From Podarcis cretensis (lineage: Eukaryota): a DNA stretch of 64,000 nucleotides. A model generated the notes under the pieces. That model was not told the origin of the DNA, ran no database searches, and was given only the letters and a program-made list of their open reading frames with translations. The stretch covers positions 49,724,001-49,788,000 of the forward strand of contig OX638156.1 in NCBI GenBank assembly GCA_951804945.1, in the 5' to 3' direction. Position numbers and translations under genes: made by a program. Shown one piece after another: positions 994 through 64,000 of the stretch (within the stretch, counting starts at the first letter, position 1; every line of letters begins with the position of its first letter).

Positions 994-3940
994 CTGAAAG
1001 ATGCACAGGGGAGAGAGAGAGCTCAGTAGGGAGGGGCACTACCTGATCCCCAAGTTGATCTAAGAGAGTGAAATCGCCCAACCTGTTCCGCAGTCACACC
1101 AAGAGCCCTCTTGTGGCTCAGTGTGCCCCCAAACCAAAGGCAGAGCTGGGAAGGTGGGAAAGAGAGTCTGCATCCTACCATGGGTACAATGGAGGGAACC
1201 TGTGCAGAACTCGCACCAGTGTAGAGGGCACAGGAAGTGGGGGAGGGATCTCCTGGCCCTCTCAAGAAGCAGCTGCTACTCAAACCAACTTGTTCCTGTT
1301 CAGAGTCCATTTGCAGTAGGGGGCATCTTGGGCAGTCTTTCACTGACCAGACCCAGGAGGCAGGGGACACTGCCTCCTTGACATCCTAGCACAGACAGTG
1401 GGCCTTGGGGCACAAAGGCTACATGAATCAGGCTCAGAGCGTGGCTGTGAAGTGGTGAGGGTCATGAACTCTTTTCCTCCATCACACCAGCTCCTGGACC
1501 GGGTGCAGAAAGTCAGGGCAGCACCGAGTTCTGCTAACTTACCTCCTTCCCAAAGATCTCCCTGCGATCATGTATGAGAATCCAGCCCATTCTCCAGCCA
1601 GGCACCAGCCACCGCTTGGCGAGGCCTCCACATGAGAGGATAGGCACGTTGGTGCTGAGCTTTGCAAGGGACTCGTATTTGCAGTCTTCAAACACCTGGG
1701 GGGGGGGAGTGCAGAAGGAGGAATACCAGAGTAAGTAGTGATGGAAACACCTAATGGGTGTGTGAAGCAGGTAAGGGGGATGCTAGTGCAGCTGGCTGTG
1801 ATTGGGGAGAAGACCAAGCCACCTCAGGCAGACCCACCACACTCCCTGCTTTCCCAGCCATGTGTCAGAAGGTGGGAGGGGGCTTCTCCTGGGAAGAAGG
1901 GTTCCAGCTGCTGTGCTTGGCCTTCCGAGGGACCAGGGGCGCTTCTGCCTCACTCACCATGTCAGCATAGATCTCATCGGCCAAGATGGGGACACACTGC
2001 CTGGAGGCAACTAAGAGAGACAGACAGAAAGAAATCTAGTCAGCCCCCGACTCTGTTTGCTTCTTTCTTCCCCAGAGCAAGGCCTGGGATAGAAACACAC
2101 ACACACGGTGGGGGATCCTCACCTGCCAGGATCTTCTGGAGGTGGCTTTTGCTGAAAACGGAGCCACAGGGGTTAGATGGGTTGTTCACAATCAAGCAAG
2201 CTGTCTTGTCATCCACCAGCGACTCCATTTGCTTCAGGTCAATTTCCCACGATTTCTCTGGCTGCAGGGAGAAGAAAAGGGAGGAAGAGGTGAGGAATGG
2301 CCCCACCTCAGGGCCTCAGCCTGGTACCCATGGACCAGGCTTCCTGCTGGGGTCAGGGTGGGCCGGAGGTCCTGGGCAGGTGAAAAGGGATGGCGGTTGG
2401 AGCAACTGTCAACTGGTCAGGATACTGACCTCCCTTTTCTCTTCCAAGAGCCCTGCAAAACCTCCCAGCCTGGGTTTGGGCCCAGTCCAAAGAAGGGGAG
2501 ATGGAGAACAGGTCCCCAGGCCTTGAACCCGGGTCAACAGGCAGCCCTTCTTTACAGCTGAGCTCTGTGGAGAGGCAGGCAGAGCCCTGCAAGGGAGCTC
2601 CTGCATGTCTTCCTGCTTGTGCCATGCCTTTCTGCAGGCAGTGGGGAGGGTATGCTGCGCCACCTCCTGCCCCAGCTTACCAAGAGGTCGTAGAATTTGA
2701 CCTCGATGCCCAGGGACTGAGCCAGGGTTTTGTAGAGGGAGAAACCAGGCCGTGGCACCAGGATGTTCTGCCCAGGGTTGGCCAACACAGCCAGGGCCAG
2801 CTCAATGGCCTGACTGCAGCCGCTTGTCAGGATCACGTCCTGCAAAGGAAGAGGGAGCAGAGCAGGTAGCCGTGAGCCTGGCGGGTAGCAACTACCAGGA
2901 AAGACTAGCCCAGAAGAAGCACAGAAGGGGAGGGAGGTGGGAGGGAAAGGTTTCTTCACTGGCTCTTTCTGGGAATTCCTGGCCAGGAGCCTGGAATGAA
3001 GTGGGGGTCCCTGCTGGCATACAGAAGGTCCCAGGTTAAATCCCCAATGGCATCAACTTAGTCTGGGAGAGACTCCCTGCCTGAAACCCATGAGAGATGA
3101 TGTTGCCAGTCAGTGTGGACAATACCAAGCTAGGTGGACCAGTTGTCTGACTCAGTATAAAGCAGCTTCCTGGCTTCCTAATAAAGATTCCAGGCCCAGG
3201 ATCCTTTCTGAGCAAGCTCCAGTTCCAGTACAGTGAGTTGCGGAGGTCCTGGCCAGGGTTTGCAAAAGCTAATTTTCGCAACATCCCCATCAAGCATCGA
3301 GGTCAGATGGCAATGCATGCAGCAGTCAGGGTCAGTTACCTGGGCTTCCAAGGGGGCTTCTGGACAGGTGTAGTAGCCTGCGACCACCTCCCGGCAAGAC
3401 AAGTAACCTGTGCAGAGGATTCCCAGAAGAGTTGGCATGTTAGACTTTTACAGCAAAAGCAAAATAGGGGCTGCATACACTGAAAGCATCTCCCAGGACT
3501 TACCTACTGAGGGGGCATAGCCATTATACTGCCCAGAATCCAGGGCCTCCTTCATCGCTTGGATGACCTCATCATCTGTTGGGAGGTTCCCAAACACAGT
3601 TGGGTCCCCTGTGGGGAAACATGAGGGGAATCCATGTCAGTTGAGGGTGGGGCATTGGCAGGAGCCCCCACCTCATGGTCCCTCCATAGCCCACCTGCTT
3701 ACCTATGGACAGAGAGATCAGGGGCTTCTGGTGGTTGGGCTCTACCTTCATGCTGTCCACAATGGCTCGGATGGGGTTGAAGGTCCTCTTGGACATTTCG
3801 GAAGCCCTGACGGCCCAGTGGGCCTTGCGGTTTTTCCCCTTGCCCAGAGAAGGGCCCTTCCCGCCATTGAGGCTGACGTGGACATCAAGGATGGAGGGCG
3901 GGGACGTCTTGCCATTCACGTGGATCAGGTAGGATTCCAT
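865..3940 (-). CDS. TAT: Tyrosine aminotransferase, first 8 coding exons (348 codons); 3' exons lie left of the window
   Basis: Exons 3703-3940, 3504-3608, 3340-3407, 2681-2839, 2123-2261, 1958-2010, 1543-1695, 865-993; all GT-AG and phase-compatible. Motifs [40 protein letters not shown] and the PLP-lysine motif GGLAKRW. Confidence 0.98.
1543..1695 (-). CDS. TAT: TAT coding exon 7 (VFEDCKY...GGLAKRW...IFGKE)
   Basis: 153 nt, CAG/GTAAG, contains PLP-binding Lys. Confidence 0.96.
1958..2010 (-). CDS. TAT: TAT coding exon 6 ([18 protein letters not shown])
   Basis: 53 nt, TAG/GTGAG. Confidence 0.95.
2123..2261 (-). CDS. TAT: TAT coding exon 5 (PEKSWEI...QKILA)
   Basis: 139 nt, CAG/GTGAG. Confidence 0.96.
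2681..2839 (-). CDS. TAT: TAT coding exon 4 (DVILTSG...FYDLL)
   Basis: 159 nt, CAG/GTAAG. Confidence 0.96.
3017..3181 (+). mobile_element. tRNA-derived SINE copy, 5'-truncated
   Basis: CAGAAGGTCCCAGGTTAAATCCC B-box region followed by the family body ending GCAGCTTCCT. Confidence 0.75.
3340..3407 (-). CDS. TAT: TAT coding exon 3 (GYLSCRE...PLEAQ)
   Basis: 68 nt, CAG/GTAAC. Confidence 0.95.
3504..3608 (-). CDS. TAT: TAT coding exon 2 ([12 protein letters not shown]...YAPSV)
   Basis: 105 nt, CAG/GTAAG. Confidence 0.95.
3703..3940 (-). CDS. TAT: TAT coding exon 1 (MESYLIH...ISLSI)
   Basis: ATG at 3940 just after acceptor CAG|AG; donor GTAAG. Confidence 0.95.
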
Positions 3941-11528: not shown

Positions 11529-12155
11529 TTTTTTTTAATAAAGTTTTTTATTTATATAACAAGAAAAAAGAAAAAAACCACAAATACCAAATTACACACA
11601 AATTACAAAAATAACCATAGACACATAATTTTCTTAGCAAACAATAAAACATCTATTGGTCTTAACACTAAAGACCCAACCTCCCGTCTATTCCATATTT
11701 CAAATTCATATTACTTATTGCCAATACACACCTTTATCATAATTAAACTTATTCTCAATAAATCTAATTTCTTATATCTACCTTGCAACTATTACTGAAG
11801 TTCCTCAAATGCTGCAACAGAATTTAAACTACTATATTTATTTTTCAGATTTTCTTTGAAAACCTCCCATTTTGAAACAAATTCCTGTTTTGATTTATTC
11901 TTTATTTTTTCTGATAAACCATCTAATTTGGCATATTCTGTCAGCTTTTGGATCCAATCTTGTATAGAGGGGATTTCATTACTTTTCCATTTTGCTACAA
12001 TCAAAATTCTTGCTGCCGTCATTGCATATAAAAAGATACCCTTCCTCTTTTGTGGAATATCCAAATCTGTTATTCCCAGGAGGTAGGCATCTGGTTTTTT
12101 ATTGAAAGAGATCTTTAGCATTTTTTGCAGTTCTGCATGTACACTCTCCTGAGTC
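11529..12155 (-). mobile_element. 5'-truncated L1-clade LINE (ORF2 C-terminus, 3' UTR, poly(A))
   Basis: ORF 11792-12121 (KKPDAYLLGI...TAARILIVAKWK) is similar to the ORF2 end at 27016-28188; T-tract at 11528-11536; 22-bp TSD with 2 mismatches. Confidence 0.85.
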
Positions 12156-12167
12156 GATGCTGCAAGG

Positions 12168-12303
12168 CAGGCTTCCTCAACCTCGGCCCTCCAGATGTTT
12201 TTGGCCTACAACTCCCATGATCCCTAGCTAGCAGGACCAGTGGTCAGAGATGATGCGAATTATATTCTCAAAACATCTGGAGGGCCAAGGTTGAGGAAGC
12301 CTG
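12168..12303. mobile_element. hAT-type MITE
   Basis: TIRs CAGGCTTCCTCAACCT / AGGTTGAGGAAGCCTG; 8-bp flanks CTGYAAGG / CTATAAGG. Confidence 0.85.
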
Positions 12304-16629: not shown

Positions 16630-17600
16630 GCAGCCGAGTCGGGCGGGGGAGGGAGGGGCGCACCTATGGCGGAGAAGCCCTGGCGCCCTTGGACATCTTT
16701 TCCCGCTACATCCTTAAAAAAGCCATCTTGTGTTGGGACCAGGAAGGGACCGAACATCGGGCCTGGACGGGCAGCAACAGCGGTTTGTCCAGGGACTGCC
16801 TTGGGCCTTTCCAGACCCGCCCTGACTTCCTCGACGGCTGCTGGAGAAGCGCTCCTCGGCAAGCGCCGGCAGCGACGAGCCCCCTCTGTCGGGCGGCGGC
16901 TCCTAGGCGACATGGACACCTGCCTCCCACCTACACCAGCCCCGGCCAATCTCCGCCCAGGAGGCGGCGCCGCCGCGCTCACCTGCGACGCCCCACCCAG
17001 ACCTCCCTGCGCGCCACCAGGCTACGAGCCATGGCGGACGCCGGGAAGAGACCCGGGAAGCCGCGGGACTGGCGTCACGACCGGCCGGCGGTGGTGGCGG
17101 TAGGAGAGCAGCCGTGGCCGTGGCGACAGCAGCAGCAGCACCAGCAGCAGCAGCACCGCCCCCCTCCCTCCCGAGGCACCACACTGGCCTCTTTGGACGC
17201 CCCTGCCGAGGCCCGAGGCGGAGGCGGCCTTCTGGACAAACCGCTATGTCGCGCCCTGTGCACGGCCAGAGGTGAGGGCCCGGGCCGGGTTAGATGTCCC
17301 TACTGGCCCGCAAAGGGGTGGGTCAGGGCGGTACGATGTCGACGACACGCCCCCTTCCCCTCGTGGATGAGGAGCCCGGGCTGCGATGAGGGGGGGGGGG
17401 GGTTGCGTTTGTACCTTCTCCTCCTCCCCTGCTGCTGGTGAGCTCGATGTGGGCGAGGCCACTGACAGCTTCCCTGATGGGGCGGGCAAAAAGGCTGTTG
17501 CCTCGCGGGGACGGGGTGCTTGCCAGCCAGACGCTGCCACCCCCCCCCCTTCGCAGGCTGCCCAAAAGTAGCGAGGGGCAGGCCTGTGGCCCCACAGCTT
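16630..17600. promoter_or_regulatory. CpG island, MARVELD3 promoter and exon 1
   Basis: High GC and CpG density; CCAAT and GC box at about 16945-16958 upstream of the ATG. Confidence 0.8.
17031..17271 (+). CDS. MARVELD3: MARVELD3 coding exon 1
   Basis: 241 nt, donor G|GTGAG; includes a (CAG)n Gln/His run. Confidence 0.8.
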
Positions 17601-19073
17601 GCTGGCAAGGGGGGCAATGAGTGAGTGCTGCTCAGCCGTCAAGGCAGATGGGCAGGTTCCCCCCCCCCCGCCTTGCCTGGCAGGGCCCACTCCAGCTGCT
17701 TGGCTTGCACTGCTGCCCGCTCACGTCCTTAATACGCCTAAGGCCTTTCCCCACCTGGACTGAACCACTTTGCTCTTTCACAATCCTCAGGCCTCTGTGG
17801 TCAACACAAGCTCCCTCCAGGGAGTAAGGTGGCACCCACGAGGCTGCCAGGTCACCCCAGTTTCCTCCCAGCCTAAAACAGGGGTGAATAAACTTTTTCA
17901 GCCCAAGGGCCATATTCCATTCTAGTCAACTTTACAGGGGCCATATGGCCAGTGTGGGTGGGGCAACAAATGTTAATTTATTCACACATCCCTCTCTCCC
18001 TGTGTCTCCACCAGGGGAGCAAGATAAATTATCAGAATTCAAGGGGGGAGGTGAGGCTTGCATGGGGCATGGCCTGGGGAAGTCCCAAAAGCCATGTAGA
18101 GAAACCCAGGAAACCATATTTGATGCCTGGGGTTCCCTATCCCTGGCCTAAAAGTAAGGGTGAAACATGAGGGGAGCTCCGAGGTCACTAACCTCACGTA
18201 TGAAAAGTCTTTCAATGTGGCATTGGGGCAGAAGATGCCCTGGCAGAAACATGGAAGGAAGGATAGTCGCTGCCTGCTCAGATACGCTCCCTTAACCCCA
18301 GCAAGATTTGGGATCCAATCCACCCACAAAGCTGACCTCTATGAGTGGGCCTGGAGGGGCCAAGTTCCTTCCCCGTTTCTCCATCTTCCACACAGGCTGA
18401 GCCCCACAGCGTTAGAGAAATGGCACTAACAACACCCCTCTGCCCTTGCTTCTTCTTAGCCTGCTGCCAACAGCTCCAGCTCCTCCTCTGCATGCTGATT
18501 GTTATCTGCAGCTCAGTCTCCTACAATTCGACAGGTGGCTACACTGGTCTTTTCAGTCTGGGGAGCATTTACTACTACCAATACGGCGGGGCCTACAGTG
18601 GCCTCAGTGGAGCTGACGGGGAGAAGGCACAGCAGTTGGATGCTCAGTTCCACCAACTCAAGGTGCCACCGGCCCAGGTGGCCATGGCGGTTGGAGGGGC
18701 GCTGATGGCCTTTGCCTGCTTCCAGATTGTGGCTAGTCTCTTCCGAGTGCCCTGGCATTGCCCAGCCTGGCTGATAGCGGAGGCCATTCTGGATGTGGCC
18801 ATTGCAATTGGTCTTGTGCCAGCTTTGTACTTCTACTACCATCGCCTTCACGAGATCTATGCCTCCTCTCTGTGCAAAGAGCGAGAGAACCTCTACCAGA
18901 GCAAAGGCTACAGGGGCTTTGGCTGCAGTTTGCATGGAGCAGAGATCGCTGTGGGCTTCTTTGCTGGGGCGGCCATTGTGGCCTTCGCTGTTGCTGTTGT
19001 GTTGGCTGTCCGTGGCTTCAAGATTGTCCGGACCCTCCAAGCAAAACCATCATCACACAGCTATGAGCCCTAA
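17031..19073 (+). CDS. MARVELD3: MARVEL domain-containing protein 3 (tight junction), 284 aa, exons 17031-17271 and 18460-19073
   Basis: GCCATGG start; exon 1 ends [15 protein letters not shown] (like human GLLECHKCKYLCTGR); phase-1 GT-AG junction; exon 2 has [40 protein letters not shown]; AATAAA at 19697. Confidence 0.95.
17879..18145. mobile_element. hAT-type MITE in the MARVELD3 intron
   Basis: CAGGG...CCCTG ends with a perfect 8-bp TSD GCCTAAAA (17871-17878 and 18146-18153). Confidence 0.8.
18460..19073 (+). CDS. MARVELD3: MARVELD3 terminal exon (MARVEL domain, four hydrophobic segments)
   Basis: Acceptor TTCTTCTTAG; stop TAA. Confidence 0.96.
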
Positions 19074-20877
19074 CTTGGCCTCTGCTGCCTGAGTTGAAGG
19101 GAGAGCAGGATGGAGCAGCTTATTAAGCCAAGCTAAGCAGTGCCTTTGAACCATGTACAGTGGTGGCAGTGATCACTTTCTGTCTAAACCCTACCTTCAC
19201 AGTTTTGTAAACATTCTCCAAGCTCCTATTTCTTTCCCATCATACATACCGATGCAAAGTCTAGCAAGACTACTCCCTGCTCCTCTTTAATATAGAACGT
19301 CACCTGTAATGGCAAGAAGACCAACTTGGTCCCATCACCAACCAGCACTTGCTTTCTTCCCTCTGCATTCCTTTTTCCTTTCTGATCATGCCCTTAGAGT
19401 GAGACCGTTGACCAGAGACTTTCAATATATGCCTTGGGGCAAAGTGCCATCTTGTTGGTACCCCCAGAAAAAACTCCAGTCCTCTTATAGAAAGCAAAAT
19501 CTGTGTCTTTTTCCACCCACCCCTTCTTACAATGCCAGAGAAAACGTTTTTCATTCCTTCTTCCATTCACCTCATTGAGCTGCTTCCTTCATGAGGAAGT
19601 TACACATTTGCCTTGATGGCAAATGCATCTATTAGATGTTCTGTGCAGTCTTGTTTCAAATTGTTTTCATTATGGAATATAGTACTTTTGTACAATAATA
19701 AATCCACTACCTTGGTAATTCACTTTAAATGCATATGTCAAAAGACACTAGAGATCTTGGAGTTCCTTGCTTTGGGTTTGCTGCATTTGACCGCCTCAAT
19801 GTAGAGAAGCATCTCCCCCCCCCCCTCTCTCACACACACACACACACAAAACACCTGCCAGTAATGTGCAGTGATGAGGCAGAAGAGGAAACTCATCCTC
19901 CAAGCAAAAGCCAGCTCACTTCCAAGGGGTGCATTTAACTGCATTTCCAGCAATACACACAGAAGAACTGCAACATCTTGGAACACCTACATTCCCTGAG
20001 GTCCTATTTAACTGAGCATTTAGTACTCTCTTCCTTGAAATTCTAGAGCTTTTTTGGCACATTACACCAACATTCTCTCAACAGCTCATAGAAGGCTGTC
20101 TCCCAAAGCCTGGCAGTTACTGTGGTCCCCAAAGGACAATTTTGCATATCCAAAAACATTTGTCCAATAAAACTTTTTCTGTAGCTTAGTCCTACGCCCA
20201 CCCCTCAGAAAGGAAGGCGAGATTTGAGAAACCTTTGAAGGAAGAGCTGGGAAACAGGGGCCCTCCACATGTAGTTCGCCCATCAGCCCCAGGCAACATG
20301 CTAAATGGTCAAGGATGATGATTCTAGTACAGCAACATCTGGAAGGCCATTGCTTTAATGTGACATTTTTTTGAGCAACACCCAACCCAGTAGGACTGCT
20401 ACCCTCTGCTATGCCTACTTTAAGGGCCAGAAAGCACAATTATTGTAGGAATTGTGTTATTCAACCTATTTATACCCTGCCTCCTGCAGGCATAGAGGTA
20501 TCCTATACTCAACGTGCAACTCCTCAAGTTAGACTGGGGTTTAGGTACCAGCCTGTGTTAACAAAAGCGCAACATAGTTAAGTTATTCCACACAGGCTCT
20601 CCCTTCACAATAAGTCTGGACCTTCCACCGTGGGAAATGGAGGGAGAGGAAGATGGGCCACTGTGTAAAAAGATCCTTCAGTTGAGGGGTGGGGATGCTC
20701 AACTCCCAGCTCCCATCATCAACACCTAGATGGCCACAGGTTCAATTGCCTCAGACAGCATAGCCCATGATAAAAGCAGCTGTAGAGTTCACAGGTGGGT
20801 CATATCTCATTTCCAGCACAGTCATCAGAGCTCCTGGCTGCCTCTTACAAGGGAAGGAGATGGTGGAGTGATTAAAG

Positions 20878-21376
20878 CAGTGGTTTTCAACCAGTGTGCT
20901 GTGGCACCCTGGGGTGCCTTGAATGATGGCAAGGGGTGCCGTGGGCAACACTGGCCTTTGTGCCTCTTTCCTTCCCTCCCTCCTCTGATGCCCTCTTGCG
21001 TCTCTGCCTCCCAAAGCCTTGCACAGCTGTTTGTTGCAGCAGCTCCCCAGATGAATGCTGCCTCTGGGGCTAGCTAGGGGGTGCTTCCCAGGCCCTTGTG
21101 GGGCAGGGTGAGGCAGCACTTCTTTTTGGGGCGGAGGGGGACAGCTCAGAGACCAGGGGTGGTAGCTGCAGCTGCCCAGAGGACTCCCAAGGAGAGGGGG
21201 GAGGAGAGGAAGCTGAGGGAGCGCTCCATAAGGGAGGGTGTTCAAAAAAAGGGTGAGAGGCTGCCAGCTCTGCAGGCAAGGGGTGACATAATTGGGCTTC
21301 TGAGCCCCACAAGGGTGCCACAGAAAGAACGTAGTTGGTCAAAGGAGCCGTAGACCCACAAAGGTTGAAAACCTAT
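20878..21376. mobile_element. hAT/Charlie-like non-autonomous DNA transposon
   Basis: Ends CAGTGGTTTTCAACC / GGTTGAAACCTATG; flanks GATTAAAG / GGTTAAAG (7 of 8). Confidence 0.7.
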
Positions 21377-21829
21377 GGGTTAAAGGGTTGGACTAGAATC
21401 TGGGCTGAAATCTCCACTACAACCATGACTTAACTTTGGACAGTCACTCCAAAGTCTTATCCTTTCCTTCAGAGTTGCTCTGAGGACATTGGGGGGGAGG
21501 GGTGACACCCTTCAGTACTACTTTGAGCTCCTTGCAGGGAAAGGTGACCTTACTTCAACTCTGTGTCCCCTGAAGGGATACTTGTTTGTTCAAGACGAAA
21601 GGACTTGCCAACCCCCAACTCCCAGCTGTCTGACCTGCCATCATTAGTTGTGTGGGGGGGTAAGGGGTAAGGGAGGGGACAGAAGCCATCATCTTACAGG
21701 CTCAGATTGCAACAGGAAAAGAGTCCTCGGTGCTGCCATCTGCGTCTTGCCATACTACCAACTCTGCTCATCCTATGAGGAAGAGGAAGCTCAAACCAAA
21801 TACATTTCTTAGTCTTCGGGGATCCCCAA

Positions 21830-22262
21830 GGCTCTTTTTGCTGTGGTGGTGAAGAGCAGACTTCTTCGGAATCTTGTTTGGACTCCACAAGCTCCACCTC
21901 CAGCAATCCAGCTGGTGAGCTTTGCATAATAATTGTCGGCTGGAGAATCACAAGAATCCCATTCCCCACTGCCCTGATTTCATCCTGTCCTCTGTGAGAG
22001 CACAAAGCCCCATTCCCCACTGCCTCAATTTCATCCTGTCCTTCATTGAGCAGCACGGCCAGCTGGACACACATCAAGTCTCACTGGGGGGTAGATGAGA
22101 GAGGCAGCTGACCACAGCCCCAGTCAACAGGACCTCAGCAGCGAATCATTTGCTAGGATAGTGTATGTCTAGAGGACTTCCTGTGGCTCTTGAAGTGCTT
22201 CTGCCTGGCTCCCCCTCTCCCATCACGCAACCCAACAGCGGGTGCAGACACACCACCTGTTT
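21830..22262 (-). pseudogene. Possible highly decayed remnant of the PHLPP2 terminal exon
   Basis: Syntenic position and strand; acceptor-like CTTACAG; short colinear peptide matches to recalled PHLPP2 (CTR/LGC; QDEIEAVGNGALCSH; KDRMKL; LLEV...PPQQKEP). Weak. Confidence 0.3.
21958..22042. repeat. Imperfect direct repeat, 34-bp unit at 51-bp spacing
   Basis: 21958-21991 versus 22009-22042, 31 of 34 identical. Confidence 0.9.
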
Positions 22263-23507
22263 CTGTAAGGCAAACAGGCTGGCAATGAGCTTTAGGAACT
22301 TTAGCCAATCATAGATGGGAACTCTAAAGTGTTTCCCCCTTCTTTGCTGCTCCTGGAATCCTACACATGCCCCCCTAACCCACTGACCTCTGCCCTGAAA
22401 ACATCTCTCTTAGGGAGTTGTCATACTTTGGAATCTTGGCCTTCAAAAACAGGAATGTCCTCTGCTCAACATCTATGCAAGGAGCTGCAAAACCAGCTAC
22501 TAAAAGCAGGAAAGGTCTCATTAAACCGCATGGTCTTTATTTTCAGTGCCAATATTACAGATACAACACAAACGTCCCAGGAGGAGAACGAATTCAAATG
22601 GAATCCAGGACTCTGACAGACTCAGGAAATGAAAAGGGCTGAGGGGGGAAAGCAGCTTTGCAGTGGAGTCTTGAGATGAGTCTTTCTGCAGGCAAATGGT
22701 GCCCCCCCTTTCCATCTTTAAGCAACACACATTTCCTTTCTACCCACCTACCACAGCTGACAGCCAAGGATCAGACAAGAGGAGTTCCAAGATTTGGGGT
22801 GGGGGCACGCTGAAGAGCGACTTGCTGGAGGGAGCAGCCAGTCTCGTCCATCATGATGCTTTCTGAGAGGGAGGCACTGGCCAAAGAGAGCTTGACGTTG
22901 CTGCCTCCACCACTGAATCCTCCAAAGCAGAGCTTCTGTCCAGAACAGCAGGTCCACCTATCCATCCCCTTCTCAGACTCAAGCCACTGCCCTCGGGGTG
23001 TGCAGTCAAGCGTAGAAAAGGCCCCCCACGTCAGGGAACTCCAAGGAGAAAGGGTCACCAGCATCCTTGGAATACATTTCCAACATGAAATCTGGATGAA
23101 AAGTGCCTGAAGGTGGTAACCCGGCTAGCAAGGAGCCAAAACAAAACTCGCTTCACTCACTCACTCGCCCACGCCCACCGGAGGAGAGAAGATGGCAGGC
23201 GGGGAGAAACAGTCGCACGTGCCACAGTGTACCTCCCCTCCCCCCTCTTCCAAAACAAGGGGAACGTGGCTTCTGTGGCAAGTGTGGCTCAGCAGCCAGG
23301 AGAGGAGAGAAGAGAGAGCGAGCCAGCAAGTGTCTTAAGAGATATGCTTCATCAAGGTGAGCAAGGCCAGTCCTCCTGCTCTGCAGCAGCCGCTGCTCTC
23401 GTCAGCTCCCCTGGCCATGGTGCAAGTGGGGGGATTTCTGGAGTCACAGCGCTCTGCCCAGCGTTCCTTCGGCCAACCAGGTGGGGTGAGGAGGGTGGGG
23501 CCAGAGC

Positions 23508-41993
<18,486 letters not shown>

Positions 41994-52187: not shown

Positions 52188-54173
52188 ATGAGAGCGGCTC
52201 AGGAGCGGGGCCAGGAATTCCTCCCCCCCAAGAAGCGCGACCTGCCGGTGGCAGCCAACGACGAAGAGCCGGGGCGGGCGGCTGAGTCGGGTCTGGTGGG
52301 CGGTGGCGGCGGCGAGACCTCTGTGGAATGGTCCCGGGGCTCAGCAACAGGCAGGCAGAGCCAGGCACCTTCACGTTACACGGAGGCTGGTGGCAGCTCC
52401 GACACAGTGACCAGTCTTACCGTGGACCAGTACGGCTTATTGTACAAAGTGGCGATGCCCCCGGCCACCTTCTCACCTGTGGTGAATGTCAGCCCGCTGC
52501 CTCCAGCCTTCAGTATGACCTCGCAGCTGATCCCGCACCCTGGTATCCCCTACTCGCCTATCCATTACACTCAACTTCCTCCTGCTCCCTTGCAGTTTGT
52601 GGGATCACACTACTCTGTACCCTATGCCGCCGCTGTGCCTCCTGGCTTCCTGCCCAGCCACCTTCTGTCCTCTTCAGCCAGCCTTGCTGCCTCTCATATC
52701 CCACACTTTGTGCCCTATGCACCTCTCCTGGCTGAAGACTCTGCTTCTTCTCCACAGGCAGCCCACAGCTTTGGCAAGACCAGTGCCTCAGTTTTGCCTT
52801 CAGGCTCTCTGCAGCCCCATGTTGGAGGTCAGCCACTGGATGTTACACAGGGCCGAATTCCAGTCTATTATCAGATGTCACGTCTGCCAGCAGGCTATTC
52901 ATCATTTGAAGCTTCTGTTGCTGGCCCAAACACTGAGCAGTCTCTGCAGGAGAATCAGCTAGATCCTAAAGTCACAGCAAACGGGGTGCAAAGGTCTGCC
53001 GTGGGGGTGAAGGAAAGTGAGGCTGTAGGACAGTGGCCAAGGACAACGGTAGAGTGCAGCACTGAAGGTACCTTCTTGACAAGCAGTCAGATTTTGAGAA
53101 CAGAGATCTCTGTGCCATCTCAGCGGAGCACCCCAGATACAGACCTGGAGGTGCAGAGGGTGGTTGGAGTGCTTGCTTCCCAGGACTACCCTGTTTGTTC
53201 TGCTCAGCAGAAGGATGGCTTGAGCCCTCTAAACCTTTCCCATCGTAATCCTCCTGAGCAGAAGGCAGAGTCAATGAGGAACCCAGTGGAACTTGTGGTG
53301 GCTGCTACTGCTGAGAAAAGCCACTTTCGGGGACTGTCGGCAAAGTCCCCTGAAGAGCAGCTCCGCCATCGGCAAATACTGAAAGGCATTACAATGGCCA
53401 ATGGTCGGCCAGTCTCAGGGTCCCTCCATCCTGGGGCTCAGGATGGCCTGGGAGGTGCAAGTCCTGAGGGAAGAGCCCATGAGGGACTACCTGACACGGA
53501 ATGTGCCCATTCCCAGAGCCACTTACCCTCCCACTTCATGAAAGGAGCCATCATCCAGCTGGCCACAGGAGAGCTAAAGAGGGTGGAGGACCTGCAGACC
53601 CAGGACTTTGTGCGCAGTGCAGAGGTGAGTGGTGGCCTCAAGATTGACTCCAGCACTGTGGTGGACATCCAAGAGAGTCCCTGGCAGGGCTTCGTCACAC
53701 TGCATTTTGTGGTGGGGGAGCAGCAGAGCAAAGTGAGCATCGATGTGCCCCCTGAGCACCCTTTCTTTGTGTATGGACAGGGCTGGTCCTCATGCAGTCC
53801 AGAGAGGACGAATCGGCTCTTCTCACTCTCCTGCCACAGGCTGCAGGTGGGAGATGTTTGCATCTCCATCAGTTTACAGAGTCTGAATGGGAGGCTTGTG
53901 CCCCAGGCAAGCCCCCAGAGTGCTACCCGAGAGAGACCAGGGCGGGGTGGGGAGAATCTCCAGGAGCTGCAGAAAAACCCATTGGAGAAGGGTGGAGTGG
54001 CAGTGGGCTCCCCCCAGGAATCCACCCACCACGATCCTGTTTCTCTGCATGGTTGGGCAGGCCCCAGCTTCCAAAGGTCTGGGGAGGAGCCCCGGCCACC
54101 ACTCCTCCGCCCTTCATTCATTCCCCAGGAGGTCAAGTTGTCCATCGAGGGCCGTTCAAATGCAGGGAAGTGA
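52188..54173 (+). CDS. ATXN1L: Ataxin-1-like (BOAT1), 661 aa, single coding exon
   Basis: GCCATG; MRAAQERGQEFLPPKKRDLP; STPDTDLEVQRVVG; AXH domain SHFMKGAIIQLATGELKRVEDLQTQDF...LQVGDVCISIS; C-terminus RPSFIPQEVKLSIEGRSNAGK. Confidence 0.98.
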   Translation: MRAAQERGQEFLPPKKRDLPVAANDEEPGRAAESGLVGGGGGETSVEWSRGSATGRQSQAPSRYTEAGGSSDTVTSLTVDQYGLLYKVAMPPATFSPVVNVSPLPPAFSMTSQLIPHPGIPYSPIHYTQLPPAPLQFVGSHYSVPYAAAVPPGFLPSHLLSSSASLAASHIPHFVPYAPLLAEDSASSPQAAHSFGKTSASVLPSGSLQPHVGGQPLDVTQGRIPVYYQMSRLPAGYSSFEASVAGPNTEQSLQENQLDPKVTANGVQRSAVGVKESEAVGQWPRTTVECSTEGTFLTSSQILRTEISVPSQRSTPDTDLEVQRVVGVLASQDYPVCSAQQKDGLSPLNLSHRNPPEQKAESMRNPVELVVAATAEKSHFRGLSAKSPEEQLRHRQILKGITMANGRPVSGSLHPGAQDGLGGASPEGRAHEGLPDTECAHSQSHLPSHFMKGAIIQLATGELKRVEDLQTQDFVRSAEVSGGLKIDSSTVVDIQESPWQGFVTLHFVVGEQQSKVSIDVPPEHPFFVYGQGWSSCSPERTNRLFSLSCHRLQVGDVCISISLQSLNGRLVPQASPQSATRERPGRGGENLQELQKNPLEKGGVAVGSPQESTHHDPVSLHGWAGPSFQRSGEEPRPPLLRPSFIPQEVKLSIEGRSNAGK

Positions 54174-58001: not shown

Positions 58002-58671
58002 TCAGTGCAGGGCACTGGGACTCGGCTCCTCAAAGGCCATTTTACCAAGCAGCTGCCCCTCAAGCTCTAGCCCACCCACTGGCAGTGGGAAGAAGTTCAT
58101 CTCGGCTGCCAATGCAGCCATGGCCGAGGGGTCCTGGCCAAACTGTGCCCGCAGCATCATGTCCATTTTCTCCAGCCGCCGCTTTAGCCTCTTGGCTTCA
58201 CGCTCCCGGATGAGCCGAGCTTGCCGCTTCTCAGGGGTCTCGTTGGCCCGCTTGAGGCGCATTGCTTCACGGTCCCGCTGCAGGCGGCGCGCACGCTGCT
58301 CGTCCGTCTCCTGCATGCGCTGCAGCCGCTTGGCCTCTCGATCCCTCATGCGCCTCACCTCCCGCTCCTCCGGCGTCTCGTTGTCTCGACGGCTCTTCTT
58401 AGCTGTGCGCTCTCGCTCCAGGCGCTGCAGCCGCACCTCCAGGGGCTCGTTCTGCCTTCGCAAGGCCCACTTGCGAACCCCTGGAGCTTGAGCTTCCAGA
58501 AGCTTGCGATAGGCCACGCAGCTGTTGCACACCAGGAGGATGCCAGCAGGATACACTGTGGGGCTGACAGCAGCAGCAGCACCACCACCTGCTTTTTCCT
58601 CGGCACCAGAAGAAGCCTCAGGGAGGGGAATGGGCAGGGCATCTCCACACAGCACCTCTGACACCTTCTCA
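58002..58671 (-). CDS. ZNF821: ZNF821 last exon (STPR domain)
   Basis: 670 nt to TGA. Confidence 0.96.
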
Positions 58672-61593
58672 CTGTGAAAGTCAAAGAGTAGAAATGACGG
58701 GTGGTCGGCACAGATCGTAAGAAGCCATTGTGTAGGCTTGCAAGCCACTGCCTTAGCTGTAACCCTCCCCATCCCTCTGGCCATGCTTACAAGCCACCCC
58801 ACCCACATGGCCTGCATAACGCTTCTGGCTGGGGTCACCTATTCCAGCTGCCTCCAGAAATTGCCAGGTATAACCTCCATTGCTTCCATTGAACAGGGCC
58901 CCTCCAGGACTTCCAAAATGCGGCCTGGGCCACGTTGTCCCAGTCCCACCGTCAGAGATGCCCACTTCTCACCTGTTGAAAGTAGCATGGCTGGTGAAGC
59001 GAGCCCCACACACCGCACAGTTGGACAGTTGGTCCTCGGAGTGGATGAGGAGGTGCCTGCCCAAGGAGCCCGGGGAGCTGAGTGCTCGGCCACAGACGGG
59101 ACACAGGTAGCTCTTGGCACTGACCACAGCTGCCGTATGCTGCAAACGAGGCCGGGCTGTGAGGCAAGGGCTCCGCCGCCCTGTCCCCCTCTCAGCTGTC
59201 CCTATGAGGGCAGGCAGCCAAGGCCATGCCACGGAAGAGCTCCCTCTTCTGTTAGGGAAAGAAGGAGAGAGACCCGCAAGGCCTTCCCTGGGATGTGGTG
59301 CAAACCCACCAGGGGGGATGATTCAAATTGCATCCAATGCCAACAGCCCCTGCCCCCATCCCCACCCTTTCCCAGTCCAGGATTACTAATTTCAGCCTGG
59401 AAGGAAAGGGGGAGCCAGGGCAGGGATGGTTTAGCCTTGCGTGATGGTCTCATCAAAGCCCCCTCTAAGTACCTGATAGACATGAGTGACAAGCTGCTCC
59501 CTGCTTCCACACTCTAGCTGGCAGAGGGGACAACGGGAGAGTCCCATCAGGGTATCTGGGCTGGCATTTAAACCCATCTGCAAGCAAGGAAAGGCAGGCT
59601 AAGGAAAGAGCAGAGAACAAGACCCATGCCTGGTATTCTGCCACACGCATACACATACCCCTCCCCCCAACTGATGCTGCACCAGACCCTTTAAAACCAT
59701 GTTGACAGATTCTCTACAATGTAAGATTAGCCCTGCGCAATCAGATTGAGGGTCTACCTAGCTGTGTGTTGTCTTTTTAACACACAGCAGCCAACCAAAT
59801 GCCTCTTCTGGGAAGCCCAGAATGAGATGACAACAGCTCTATCACTCCCCTTGCCCCCATTACCATTAGGGAACTCTAATGCTAAAAAGCCTAGACCCAA
59901 TCACTTGAGCCTGCTGCAGTGATCACATGGGCACATCAAAGGACCAGGCCCAGGAATCCCAGAGTTGGCTATACAGTCCTCTTTCTCCATGCTAAGGCCA
60001 TCCAAGAGTCTGCTATTGCTATTCTCCCTTCCACCGAGTAACCACAGCAGCGTTGCACTTTTGCTTTACTATGTGTTGACTATGGCCAATGTGATGCACT
60101 TGCCTCATGGCCTCGAGCGACCTGCTTGCTGCAGCCCAGCTGCTCAGTAAGTTCCAGTTCCTTTTTCACTGTCGCTGATGCTCCGTCCTCCTCAGAAGCA
60201 TGGGAGGAGACCTCATCTTGTGTTGTCTCATCCCCCTCGCTATCACCTGGAATACAGAACAGCTTTAGGCCTCTGCCACAGACCAGCTGACAGGATTCCA
60301 AAGCAGCATGCAGGTGTTTGGTCTCTCCCAGGTGTCCCAGAGCTGCCCTCCTGTACCAGATGGGGAAACTCACTGTTGCTGCTGCTGCTACTGCTGCTGC
60401 TGGAGTCCTTTTCTTGTGGCGGAGGTGGCAGCTGCTGCATGAGTGGTGACTGGGCTCCAAGCAGCCCAGGGAAGTCTCTTCGCATCATGGCCTGACGTGT
60501 GTGCTCTTCTAACCCAGCAAAGACTTGCTCCCCTGGGGAGGAAGAAGCCGCATTAGCCCATTGCCCTTCCCAAGCCCAATCATTCCTTGCCCCCTCCTCA
60601 GATGCCCAGTGATGGTCTCCCCTACCTGAAGATGGCCCAGAATGGGACTAATGCCTGGGCTCCATTCCCCAAAACAGCTTTCCCCAAACCCTTCCTGCAA
60701 AGCAACGGTGGCCTGACCAATCCGTCCCTTCGCATCCTTTCCAACATGACCTGGAAATACAAATGTCTTCAGCAGAATTAAGCACACAGGGAGGGCTCCT
60801 GCGTGCCCTGGCTCCGCCCTAGAATTTGCATGTGCTCCCCCACCCCCGGGGCCCATATTTTGGAAGAGCTTGTCCTGCCATACAGGTTCTCCTCCAGGGG
60901 TAAAGCTGTTACATGTGTGTAAAAGATGCTTTAGTGTAGGCAATAGCAAACCTACTTATCTACTTTTGCAAACCAAATTTGTGGTGGGAGACGTCTTCTG
61001 TGGATTTTGTGGTCCAGGTTTAGTTATTTGCTTTAGTTCCTCCTTGATACGTTTTCTCTTAAGTTGTGCAAAGTGGGCAGTGCTTGCCTGAAATTGCCAG
61101 ACTCTTTCCTGGGCCTTTGCTATTTCAATTCTGATCCTAAAGCTATCATGGTGCCTGGAAGTCCCCTGTTCCTCATTGTGCAAGGGAGACTAGCCAGCCA
61201 TTCCCAACTAGTGCTGAAAAGCTGTTCATTTGCAGAAGAAACATCAGTGGGTAAGGTGGCCCAATGAGAGACAGAATGCCACTAGAATGGCGGAGAGGGG
61301 TTCTGAGCCCCCAGAGTACCTAAGGAGCCCTTAGGCTCCAATACGTGGTACGTGGACATGTCTCAGCTCAGCCAACAAATCCTCGATGTTGGGCAGGGAG
61401 TCCCCACCAGGGCTATGGGAGAAGAATGCAGCAAATAGTGGAGGGGAGGGCTGTCCCCCCCCCCCATCATTTTGCAGATGAGGATGCCTCGCTTGAGCGG
61501 GGGAAGGGGGTGAAGGTGGAAGTGACAACAGCCCCCCTCCCCTTATTACTCACAGTGGACTTTATTGGGGGTGGTCTGTTTCCGACGGGACAT
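58002..61593 (-). CDS. ZNF821: Zinc finger protein 821 (C2H2 fingers plus STPR repeats), 427 aa
   Basis: Exons 61554-61593, 60374-60532, 60104-60246, 59473-59577, 58973-59139, 58002-58671; MSRRKQTTPNKVH start, CPVCGRALSSPGSLGRHLLIH, ETPEEREVRRMRDRE repeats; AATAAA at 57867-57872. Confidence 0.97.
58973..59139 (-). CDS. ZNF821: ZNF821 exon (HTAAVV...HATFN)
   Basis: 167 nt. Confidence 0.96.
59473..59577 (-). CDS. ZNF821: ZNF821 exon (MGLNAS...CPLCQLECGSREQLVTHVYQ)
   Basis: 105 nt. Confidence 0.94.
60104..60246 (-). CDS. ZNF821: ZNF821 exon (SDSEGDETTQDEVSSH...RGHE)
   Basis: 143 nt, GC donor GAG|GCAAGT. Confidence 0.88.
60374..60532 (-). CDS. ZNF821: ZNF821 exon (WEQVFAGLEE...poly-Ser)
   Basis: 159 nt. 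Confidence 0.92.
61554..61593 (-). CDS. ZNF821: ZNF821 first coding exon
   Basis: 40 coding nt, donor GTGAGT. Confidence 0.92.
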
Positions 61594-63360
61594 GGTTCCC
61601 CCCCCCCGGGGGGGCGCACCTGCGGAAAGAAGAGCCCTGTCACCATGCGGGGGATGACCAGGGTAGGCGAGCGGGGGGCGTTTAGAGATCAGCCCCCACC
61701 CCGCGCTCGAAAGGAGGCTGCTGCCGCCTCGGCCCTTACCTGACTCCGTCGCCCGGCCTGGGCTCGCCCAGCAGCGCTGCAGGAGGACAAAGGGCCGCCC
61801 AGGCTGGCAGACAGACAGACAGAGGAAGATGGCGGCACGGCGGGAGCGCCCGGCTCGTGCACGGCGGGACCGACGGACAGACAGGCGGACGGGGGCGCGC
61901 TGCGCTGGAGCCCTTCCCTCCCCTCCGAGCGGAGCGCGCCTCTTGCCTGGCAGCAGGGGCGCCGATCCCGAGGCCGGCGCAGGCGCTCAGCCGGGAGGGG
62001 GTCCCGCAGCCATCAGGCCGGCGCCTCCGGGGGCTTCACGCACCCAGACCAGCCAGCAGGGCCAGAGTTGTGTCCTTCGGCGCTCTCCACGGGCCCGGCT
62101 ACCGAGGAGGAGGAGCAGGAGCAGGAGCAACTGCTGCTGCTGCAACCCTCCTCCCTTGCCCCGAGTCGCCTGCTTCCACGGGGCCGCTTCTCCTCTTGTC
62201 GGAGCGGCGGCGCCGCGGTGCTAGTGGCGGGGCTGCCGCCGTCCCCGCCTCTTTTCAAGCCACGAGCAGGGGGACCCGATTGACGCCCCCGCCATGCCCT
62301 GCAAGGCGCCCGGCCATTCACGCGAGCGCCCCTACAGCGGGAGGGCTCCAGTCTGCCGAGCGACGCCCCCGGGGATGGGAAGCAGCTCGGAGGGAGGGGG
62401 GCAGTGGGCGGGGCCGCCGCCTCTTCCTCCTCCTTCTCCGACGTCGTACCCGACGAGGTCGGAACTCTCCAGCCGCGGTTGAGGGCTATGGAGGGACCTC
62501 AATGAAGGTAACGCTCGCTTTAGGAAGTACGACTTTTATTGAGGTCCCTCTTTCTCCGGCGAGAGATCCCTCCGCCCGTAAAGTAGTTCCGCACAAACAC
62601 AAAGCGCCCCGTGCGTCGCTGCACTGTATCTTGGAGAAGCCGCGTCGCAGACAGAGGGCCGGACGCTGCTAAGAACTACGACTATTGCTTTTGCTACTGT
62701 CGCTGTCGCGCACCTCCTCCTCCTGAAAAGCAGAGAAGAGACGTATCCCTCCGCCTGCCCAGCTGAGGCTGGACCCGTGACGCCGCCAACGCCACCTTCG
62801 CTGCCTGCCGGGACAGACGGAAACAAAAAGACTCCCCCCCGCCCCCGGGTAAGGCCGCCCCAGCTGACCGCCCTCGCTCGGCTCTGCGTTTTCCGGGGAG
62901 CGGGGCCGTTGCCCTCCTTGGACGACTCGAGGTCCTGCTTCCCGCCGCCCTCACAAGCCTCCCCCGCCTTCCCGGTCGCCTTTCGCCCGAGGAACGGGCC
63001 GAGGCAGGGAAGGGCCCCGGGAAAGGCGAGAGAGGCCCGGAGGGTCCGCCGCCTGAAGCTGCCTTCGGCCAGCCGGTGGCGGGAGGTACGGGCGAAGAAG
63101 CGGCGCTTCCTGGTCCGTGGCTGGCGGGCTTGGCCTCTGCCCAGCCTGACCGCTCGCCTTCCCTTCCGGCTCTTGCTCCTGCCGCTGGCCGGGAATGGCT
63201 CCTCCTTGGGGCCTGTAGCACATCGAAACTGGCAGTCTGGGCCACGGGTCGGGCGGCGCTGGTGTTTCGCCTTTGAGGTCTCTGAACCCGGAGCGGGCAG
63301 CTGCCTGTGTCTAGCCGAAAGCGAAGCCGTTGCCGGAAGAAGAGTTGGGAATTGCCTTCG
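61580..63360. promoter_or_regulatory. CpG island: ZNF821 promoter, probably shared with the next gene (IST1 by synteny)
   Basis: Very high CpG density; minus-strand donor at 61739; YY1 motif AAGATGGCGGC near 61826; plus-strand donor-like CGG|GTAAGG at about 62849. Confidence 0.7.
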
Positions 63361-64000
63361 TGCCTCTGTAGTTCAACTACCTGCAAACTCCTCCACCCTC
63401 TTGGAGCAAATCCTCCACCAGCTCCCACATAGGTGGGAGCTGAGCTCTCTACCGCTTCCAGTGCTGAAAAGCGGGGCAGGTTTGTCCTCCAGGGATTGAA
63501 ACTGGTTAAAGAGATCCAAGGTTGTGAGCTGCCCCTTGTGCTGTATATGGTTGGGCCTGGCTGATCAAATCATGTACAAAAGGGGGGGAAACCAGAAATC
63601 TGTTGCTTGCACAGATGAAAGTGCTCTACACATACATACAGACAAAAAACACACACACAAAGCATTTCTTAAGTGGATAAATAGGTTTTAGCATACTGTA
63701 CTATTACACACACTTGAGTCTGTATGGACTCTGTTTAAAAATGGCTGGCATTTGTAGTCTATTCAAACATTTATTCTTGCTGTATACAAAAATTCACATT
63801 AAAATTTCTTATATTTGCTTGTTTGCTTTATTATATATTTGCAGCGGAGATAAAACATTACAGCTCGCAACCTTTCCACATTCAAACCAATCCAGATCCT
63901 GAGATCTGAGACCATTCACTGTCTGCCTCTCCAAAAGATGTTCAGCAGGTAGCAACAAGAGAACAGATCTCCCCCCCCCCTCCAATTGTGAAATGCTCCA

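Follow-up and report, generated by a model that had tools for sequence, protein, structure and literature searches.

The window analysed here, a stretch of 64,000 nt, carries TAT (-), MARVELD3 (+), AP1G1 (-), ATXN1L (+), and ZNF821 (-) in this order, as recognised by Pfam and tBLASTn. The single coding exon of ATXN1L (52188..54173, +, 661 aa, with an AXH domain by Pfam) is 98% identical to a Podarcis raffonei cluster, 80% to Rhineura, and 75% to Pogona, and its identity to birds, turtles, crocodilians, and mammals is 53-60%; the 98% identity to Podarcis indicates that the window is lacertid, hence from Squamata. An ORF at 2555..3052 (-) contains an exon of an aminotransferase class I/II (PF00155, E 1e-08) that we take, from its position, to belong to TAT, and a LINE-like ORF fragment (11792-12205, -) lies between TAT and MARVELD3. 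The predicted first coding exon of MARVELD3 (17031..17271, +) runs from an ATG to a GT donor and keeps the reading frame into the next exon; the last coding exon (18460..19073, +), with its acceptor and stop codon, encodes the MARVEL domain (PF01284, E 1.1e-06, under the gathering cut-off). With these two predicted coding exons, spanning 17031-19073 (+), the product would have 284 aa, of which about 80 form the N-terminus; human MARVELD3 has about 400 aa. A second short element with terminal inverted repeats (TIRs) and a perfect 8-bp target duplication is located in the MARVELD3 intron (17879-18145).

The coding exons of AP1G1 extend from start to stop over 23508..41930 (-), where tBLASTn with the turtle protein gave 19 pieces at E<=2e-5; the last exon and the stop codon were located as well. 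SNORD71 (31979..32064, -; RF00576, 65.6 bits), the sole Rfam match in the window, lies inside an AP1G1 intron. Another intron of this gene (26336-29296, +) contains a CR1-like fragment harbouring a 5'-truncated L1-like LINE (about 26433-28645) with a reverse transcriptase domain (PF00078), an A-rich tail, and a target duplication of 13 bp (at 26420 and 28646); both family labels are our presumption. An ORF at 58002..58838 (-) includes the last exon of ZNF821 with STPR repeats (PF21107, E 1.4e-05). A GC-rich island at 61500-63300 (0.61-0.67) coincides with the start of ZNF821 and is probably common to IST1, of which no coding exon was noticed by eye before position 64000.

According to a human gene list, the order of the 16q22 block is TAT, MARVELD3, PHLPP2, SNORA70D, AP1G1, SNORD71, ATXN1L, ZNF821, IST1 (PMC5784682), and a table from a cattle GWAS likewise groups TAT, AP1G1, MARVELD3, and PHLPP2 (PMC8446201). 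The five neighbours in the window are collinear with the human block, as the earlier note had claimed, and SNORD71 has kept its place inside AP1G1. The lizard block differs in being compact and in lacking PHLPP2 as well as, by Rfam, SNORA70D. The flanking orthologues of PHLPP2 are thus present in ancestral order, as expected of a gene lost within conserved synteny.

The empty PHLPP2 slot (19720..22515) is composed of about 2.3 kb that is unique within the window and one miniature DNA transposon (MITE), with no coding trace. On its left lies the predicted poly(A) signal of MARVELD3 (AATAAA, 19697..19702, +; a second candidate is at 20166), and on its right that of AP1G1 (AATAAA, 22536..22541, -, with a T/G-rich stretch downstream). 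An AATAAA scan places these two facing signals, both of them sequence predictions, 2,839 bp apart, in agreement with the roughly 2.8 kb given by the earlier note. The stop codons of MARVELD3 (19071-19073) and AP1G1 (23508-23510) are separated by about 4.4 kb with the UTRs counted in. As the PHLPP2 coding sequence of a turtle comprises 4,008 nt, the space between the predicted signals is insufficient for a 4-kb coding sequence. A 51-nt tandem duplication (21958..22042), with two 34-nt copies that are 91% alike, is also found in the slot.

The transposon already noticed there occupies 20878..21377. It is a 500-bp non-autonomous element with 15-nt TIRs, flanked by the octamers 20870-20877 and 21378-21385, which are identical at 7/8 bp (chance about 4e-4). 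It thus shows the short TIRs and the 8-bp target duplication by which hAT elements are known, and on these two features we presume it to be of the hAT type; no second copy was found within the window. The retained target duplication suggests a later insertion into the slot. Since flanks matching at 7/8 positions are what a single insertion would leave, rather than a join of two element copies, the MITE was ruled out as the cause of a deletion or of a mis-join.

The same flanks bear on whether PHLPP2 is in fact present in the genome and was skipped by the assembly through a mis-join or a collapse, which we regard as the least credible account of the slot. The MITE is the sole sizeable repeat there, the gap sequence has no repeat copies elsewhere in the window, and the whole window contains no N. 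In sequencing data, four runs of one organism (three samples) share 0.91-0.96 of the words of 18400-24600, i.e., at least 80% of the words of the gap itself; all four come from a single study, and the run sharing the most words may be the assembly's own sample. Three other organisms share 0.62-0.68 of these words, corresponding to at least 16-29% of those of the gap, which exceeds what the flanks alone could supply. Shared words cannot probe a single junction. A further point against an assembly error is the published loss, which covers the whole clade (PMC12002173). No RNA runs were listed among the data sets sharing words of 18400-24600.

No LRR, PP2C, PH, or RA domain was found by Pfam at E<=1 in six frames of 19074-22535, which bears out the remark in the earlier note that no LRR or PP2C exons are visible; the sole Pfam row for this interval is DUF5769 (E 0.086), under its cut-off. 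tBLASTn was performed with 119 PHLPP2 proteins, namely the full-length sequences among the best 120 of 682 PHLPP matches described below, the fused Chelonia model being omitted. It gave no credible match in the gap (best E 0.52 on the minus and 0.76 on the plus strand), and AP1G1, serving as the positive control, yielded its 19 pieces. Eight rows were obtained window-wide at E<0.01 with filters off; seven, all outside the gap, were rejected as chance matches in GC-rich or low-complexity sequence that disappear under SEG, and one as a retroelement piece within a single penguin gene model. One reading frame of the gap had no match in the PDB. The coding sequence of PHLPP2 is therefore absent from the slot, the second feature of a gene lost within conserved synteny.

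A decayed last exon of PHLPP2 might persist as a unitary pseudogene at about 21600-22500 (-), a location and strand that agree with PHLPP2, and a few short stretches there, judged by eye, looked like the C-terminal tail of the protein. This candidate was rejected and its survival appears improbable to us, as neither tBLASTn nor nhmmer (0 matches at E<10) nor a frameshift-tolerant nucleotide profile gave any signal, the two latter built from 30 of the 119 PHLPP2 proteins. The profile scored 16.6-21.6 bits for 21590-22536, less than the average over 36 control tiles (22.6-24.5). Over the whole gap its best score was 27.1-27.4 bits, located within the GC-rich MITE and matched or exceeded by 2-6 of the 36 tiles, the gap's own tile among them.

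The sensitivity of the profile was estimated with 15 simulations per setting, in which the planted sequence belonged to the profile, so that the detection limits are optimistic. Recovery of the 285-aa tail in full succeeded in 15, 15, 14, 2, and 0 of the 15 trials, and that of 50-aa pieces in 14, 4, 3, 0, and 0, at 0.3, 0.5, 0.7, 0.9, and 1.2 substitutions per site, respectively. The whole last exon thus remains detectable up to about 0.7 substitutions per site, and 50-codon pieces up to about 0.3. The recovery of the whole exon in 14/15 trials at 0.7 makes recent decay in place unlikely. Beyond about 0.9 substitutions per site a fossil would go unnoticed; an ancient remnant of PHLPP2 could therefore escape detection at the slot, and such a sub-threshold fossil is compatible with gene loss.

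Unitary pseudogenes, exemplified by GULO in primates, resemble the present case in that a single-copy gene is lost at a conserved locus. They retain recognisable broken exons at the orthologous site, whereas none was detected at the lizard slot within the limits given above.

The third feature of a gene lost within conserved synteny, its presence in the slot of an outgroup, is indicated by the human gene list (PMC5784682) and by a turtle. A search with an AP1G1 exon among proteins of 1100-3500 aa gave two matches among 89 candidates. One is a Chelonia mydas gene model (P0151) in which AP1G1 runs on into PH and LRR sequence, with stretches 93-98% identical to residues 87-115 and 157-318 of turtle PHLPP2. 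A fused model of this kind implies that in a turtle PHLPP2 would be the next gene after AP1G1 and share its strand, and it supports a presumed ancestral PHLPP2 slot in reptiles. No fused AP1G1-PHLPP2 model appeared among the best 150 of 290 matches in a search of representatives. Other oddities among the gene models are an AP1G1 of Protopterus annectens with a long insert (P0152) and a PHLPP2 of Spheniscus demersus with a retroelement-like piece (P0184).

The PHLPP part of the Chelonia model, used as a query, gave 682 matches, of which the best 120 come from turtles, a crocodile, birds, mammals, axolotl, and sturgeon; there are no squamates among them, and the same protein database names 19 squamate ATXN1L clusters. 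The matches are ranked by likeness to the turtle query, mostly at >=86% identity, and a diverged squamate copy could rank below the best 120. With 562 of the 682 outside this set and a ranking that favours the query's kin, the squamate absence is weak evidence. Scans for PHLPP2 motifs returned three bacterial loci, dismissed as chance, and another scan returned none. None of 380 metagenome stretches was confirmed to contain MARVELD3.

The loss of PHLPP2 from squamates is already known. In a PNAS paper of 2025, Husremovic et al. (PMC12002173) reported at least four losses of the gene, one of them in Squamata, two in turtles, and one in caecilians; the missing orthologues were verified by tBLASTn against genomes. 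They relied on proteomes and tBLASTn, whereas the present window gives a view of the locus: an empty slot, intact neighbours, and no detected fossil. A text search for "synten" and "synteny" found no mention of synteny in the PNAS main text or its supplement, and a literature search covering few subscription journals gave no paper describing the PHLPP2 locus in reptiles. Of the papers listed by that search, only PMC12002173 bears on the loss of PHLPP2.

The earlier note had suggested that PHLPP2 was deleted or relocated in this lineage. Its absence from the slot stands, and the tBLASTn-backed published loss in Squamata favours loss over relocation, but the event is neither peculiar to this lineage nor, given that publication, a new finding. 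A single window is compatible with an intact copy elsewhere in the lacertid genome, brought there by translocation or as a retrocopy. We nonetheless hold this to be very improbable in view of the published profile, in which Squamata are without PHLPP2 (PMC12002173), the lack of squamates among the best 120 of the 682 PHLPP matches, and the kept order of the neighbours, in which Pfam and tBLASTn reveal no sign of a rearrangement breakpoint.

We therefore consider it very likely that this lacertid has no PHLPP2 between MARVELD3 and AP1G1, most plausibly through an old deletion in place, probably on the squamate stem, that spared the neighbouring genes and left them tail to tail. PHLPP2 may have been a scaffold without catalytic activity, for which PHLPP1 served as a backup, a condition that would have relaxed selection on it. 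One or several interstitial deletions would then have taken out the gene before or near the squamate crown, neutral decay would have wiped the remaining sequence, and the hAT-type element would have entered the slot afterwards. The age of crown Squamata has been put at about 193 Mya (PMC4016551). A more far-reaching proposal takes the 2.8-kb interval for the mark of a single clean deletion, more than 190 million years old and common to all squamates, and holds that this same slot was emptied independently in turtles (twice) and in caecilians; we offer it tentatively and lean against it. Were it true, PHLPP2 would have been excised again and again, and four natural knockouts would be available for uncovering its non-catalytic role.

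The description of the lizard as a natural knockout of a proposed AKT/PKC regulator, also put forward in the earlier note, depends on a role that is contested. In the account of Husremovic et al. (PMC12002173), PHLPP2 is termed a pseudophosphatase whose phosphatase activity was not detected, AKT and PKC are retained in the lineages that lost it, and single and double knockout mice are cited as viable. What the window adds is support from synteny and the lack of any detectable fossil, together with a starting point for dating the loss relative to tuatara. The view of the locus independently confirms the loss that was used in 2025 to argue that PHLPP2 is not needed as an AKT/PKC phosphatase (PMC12002173), and a whole vertebrate order living without PHLPP2 fits the viability of the knockout mice.
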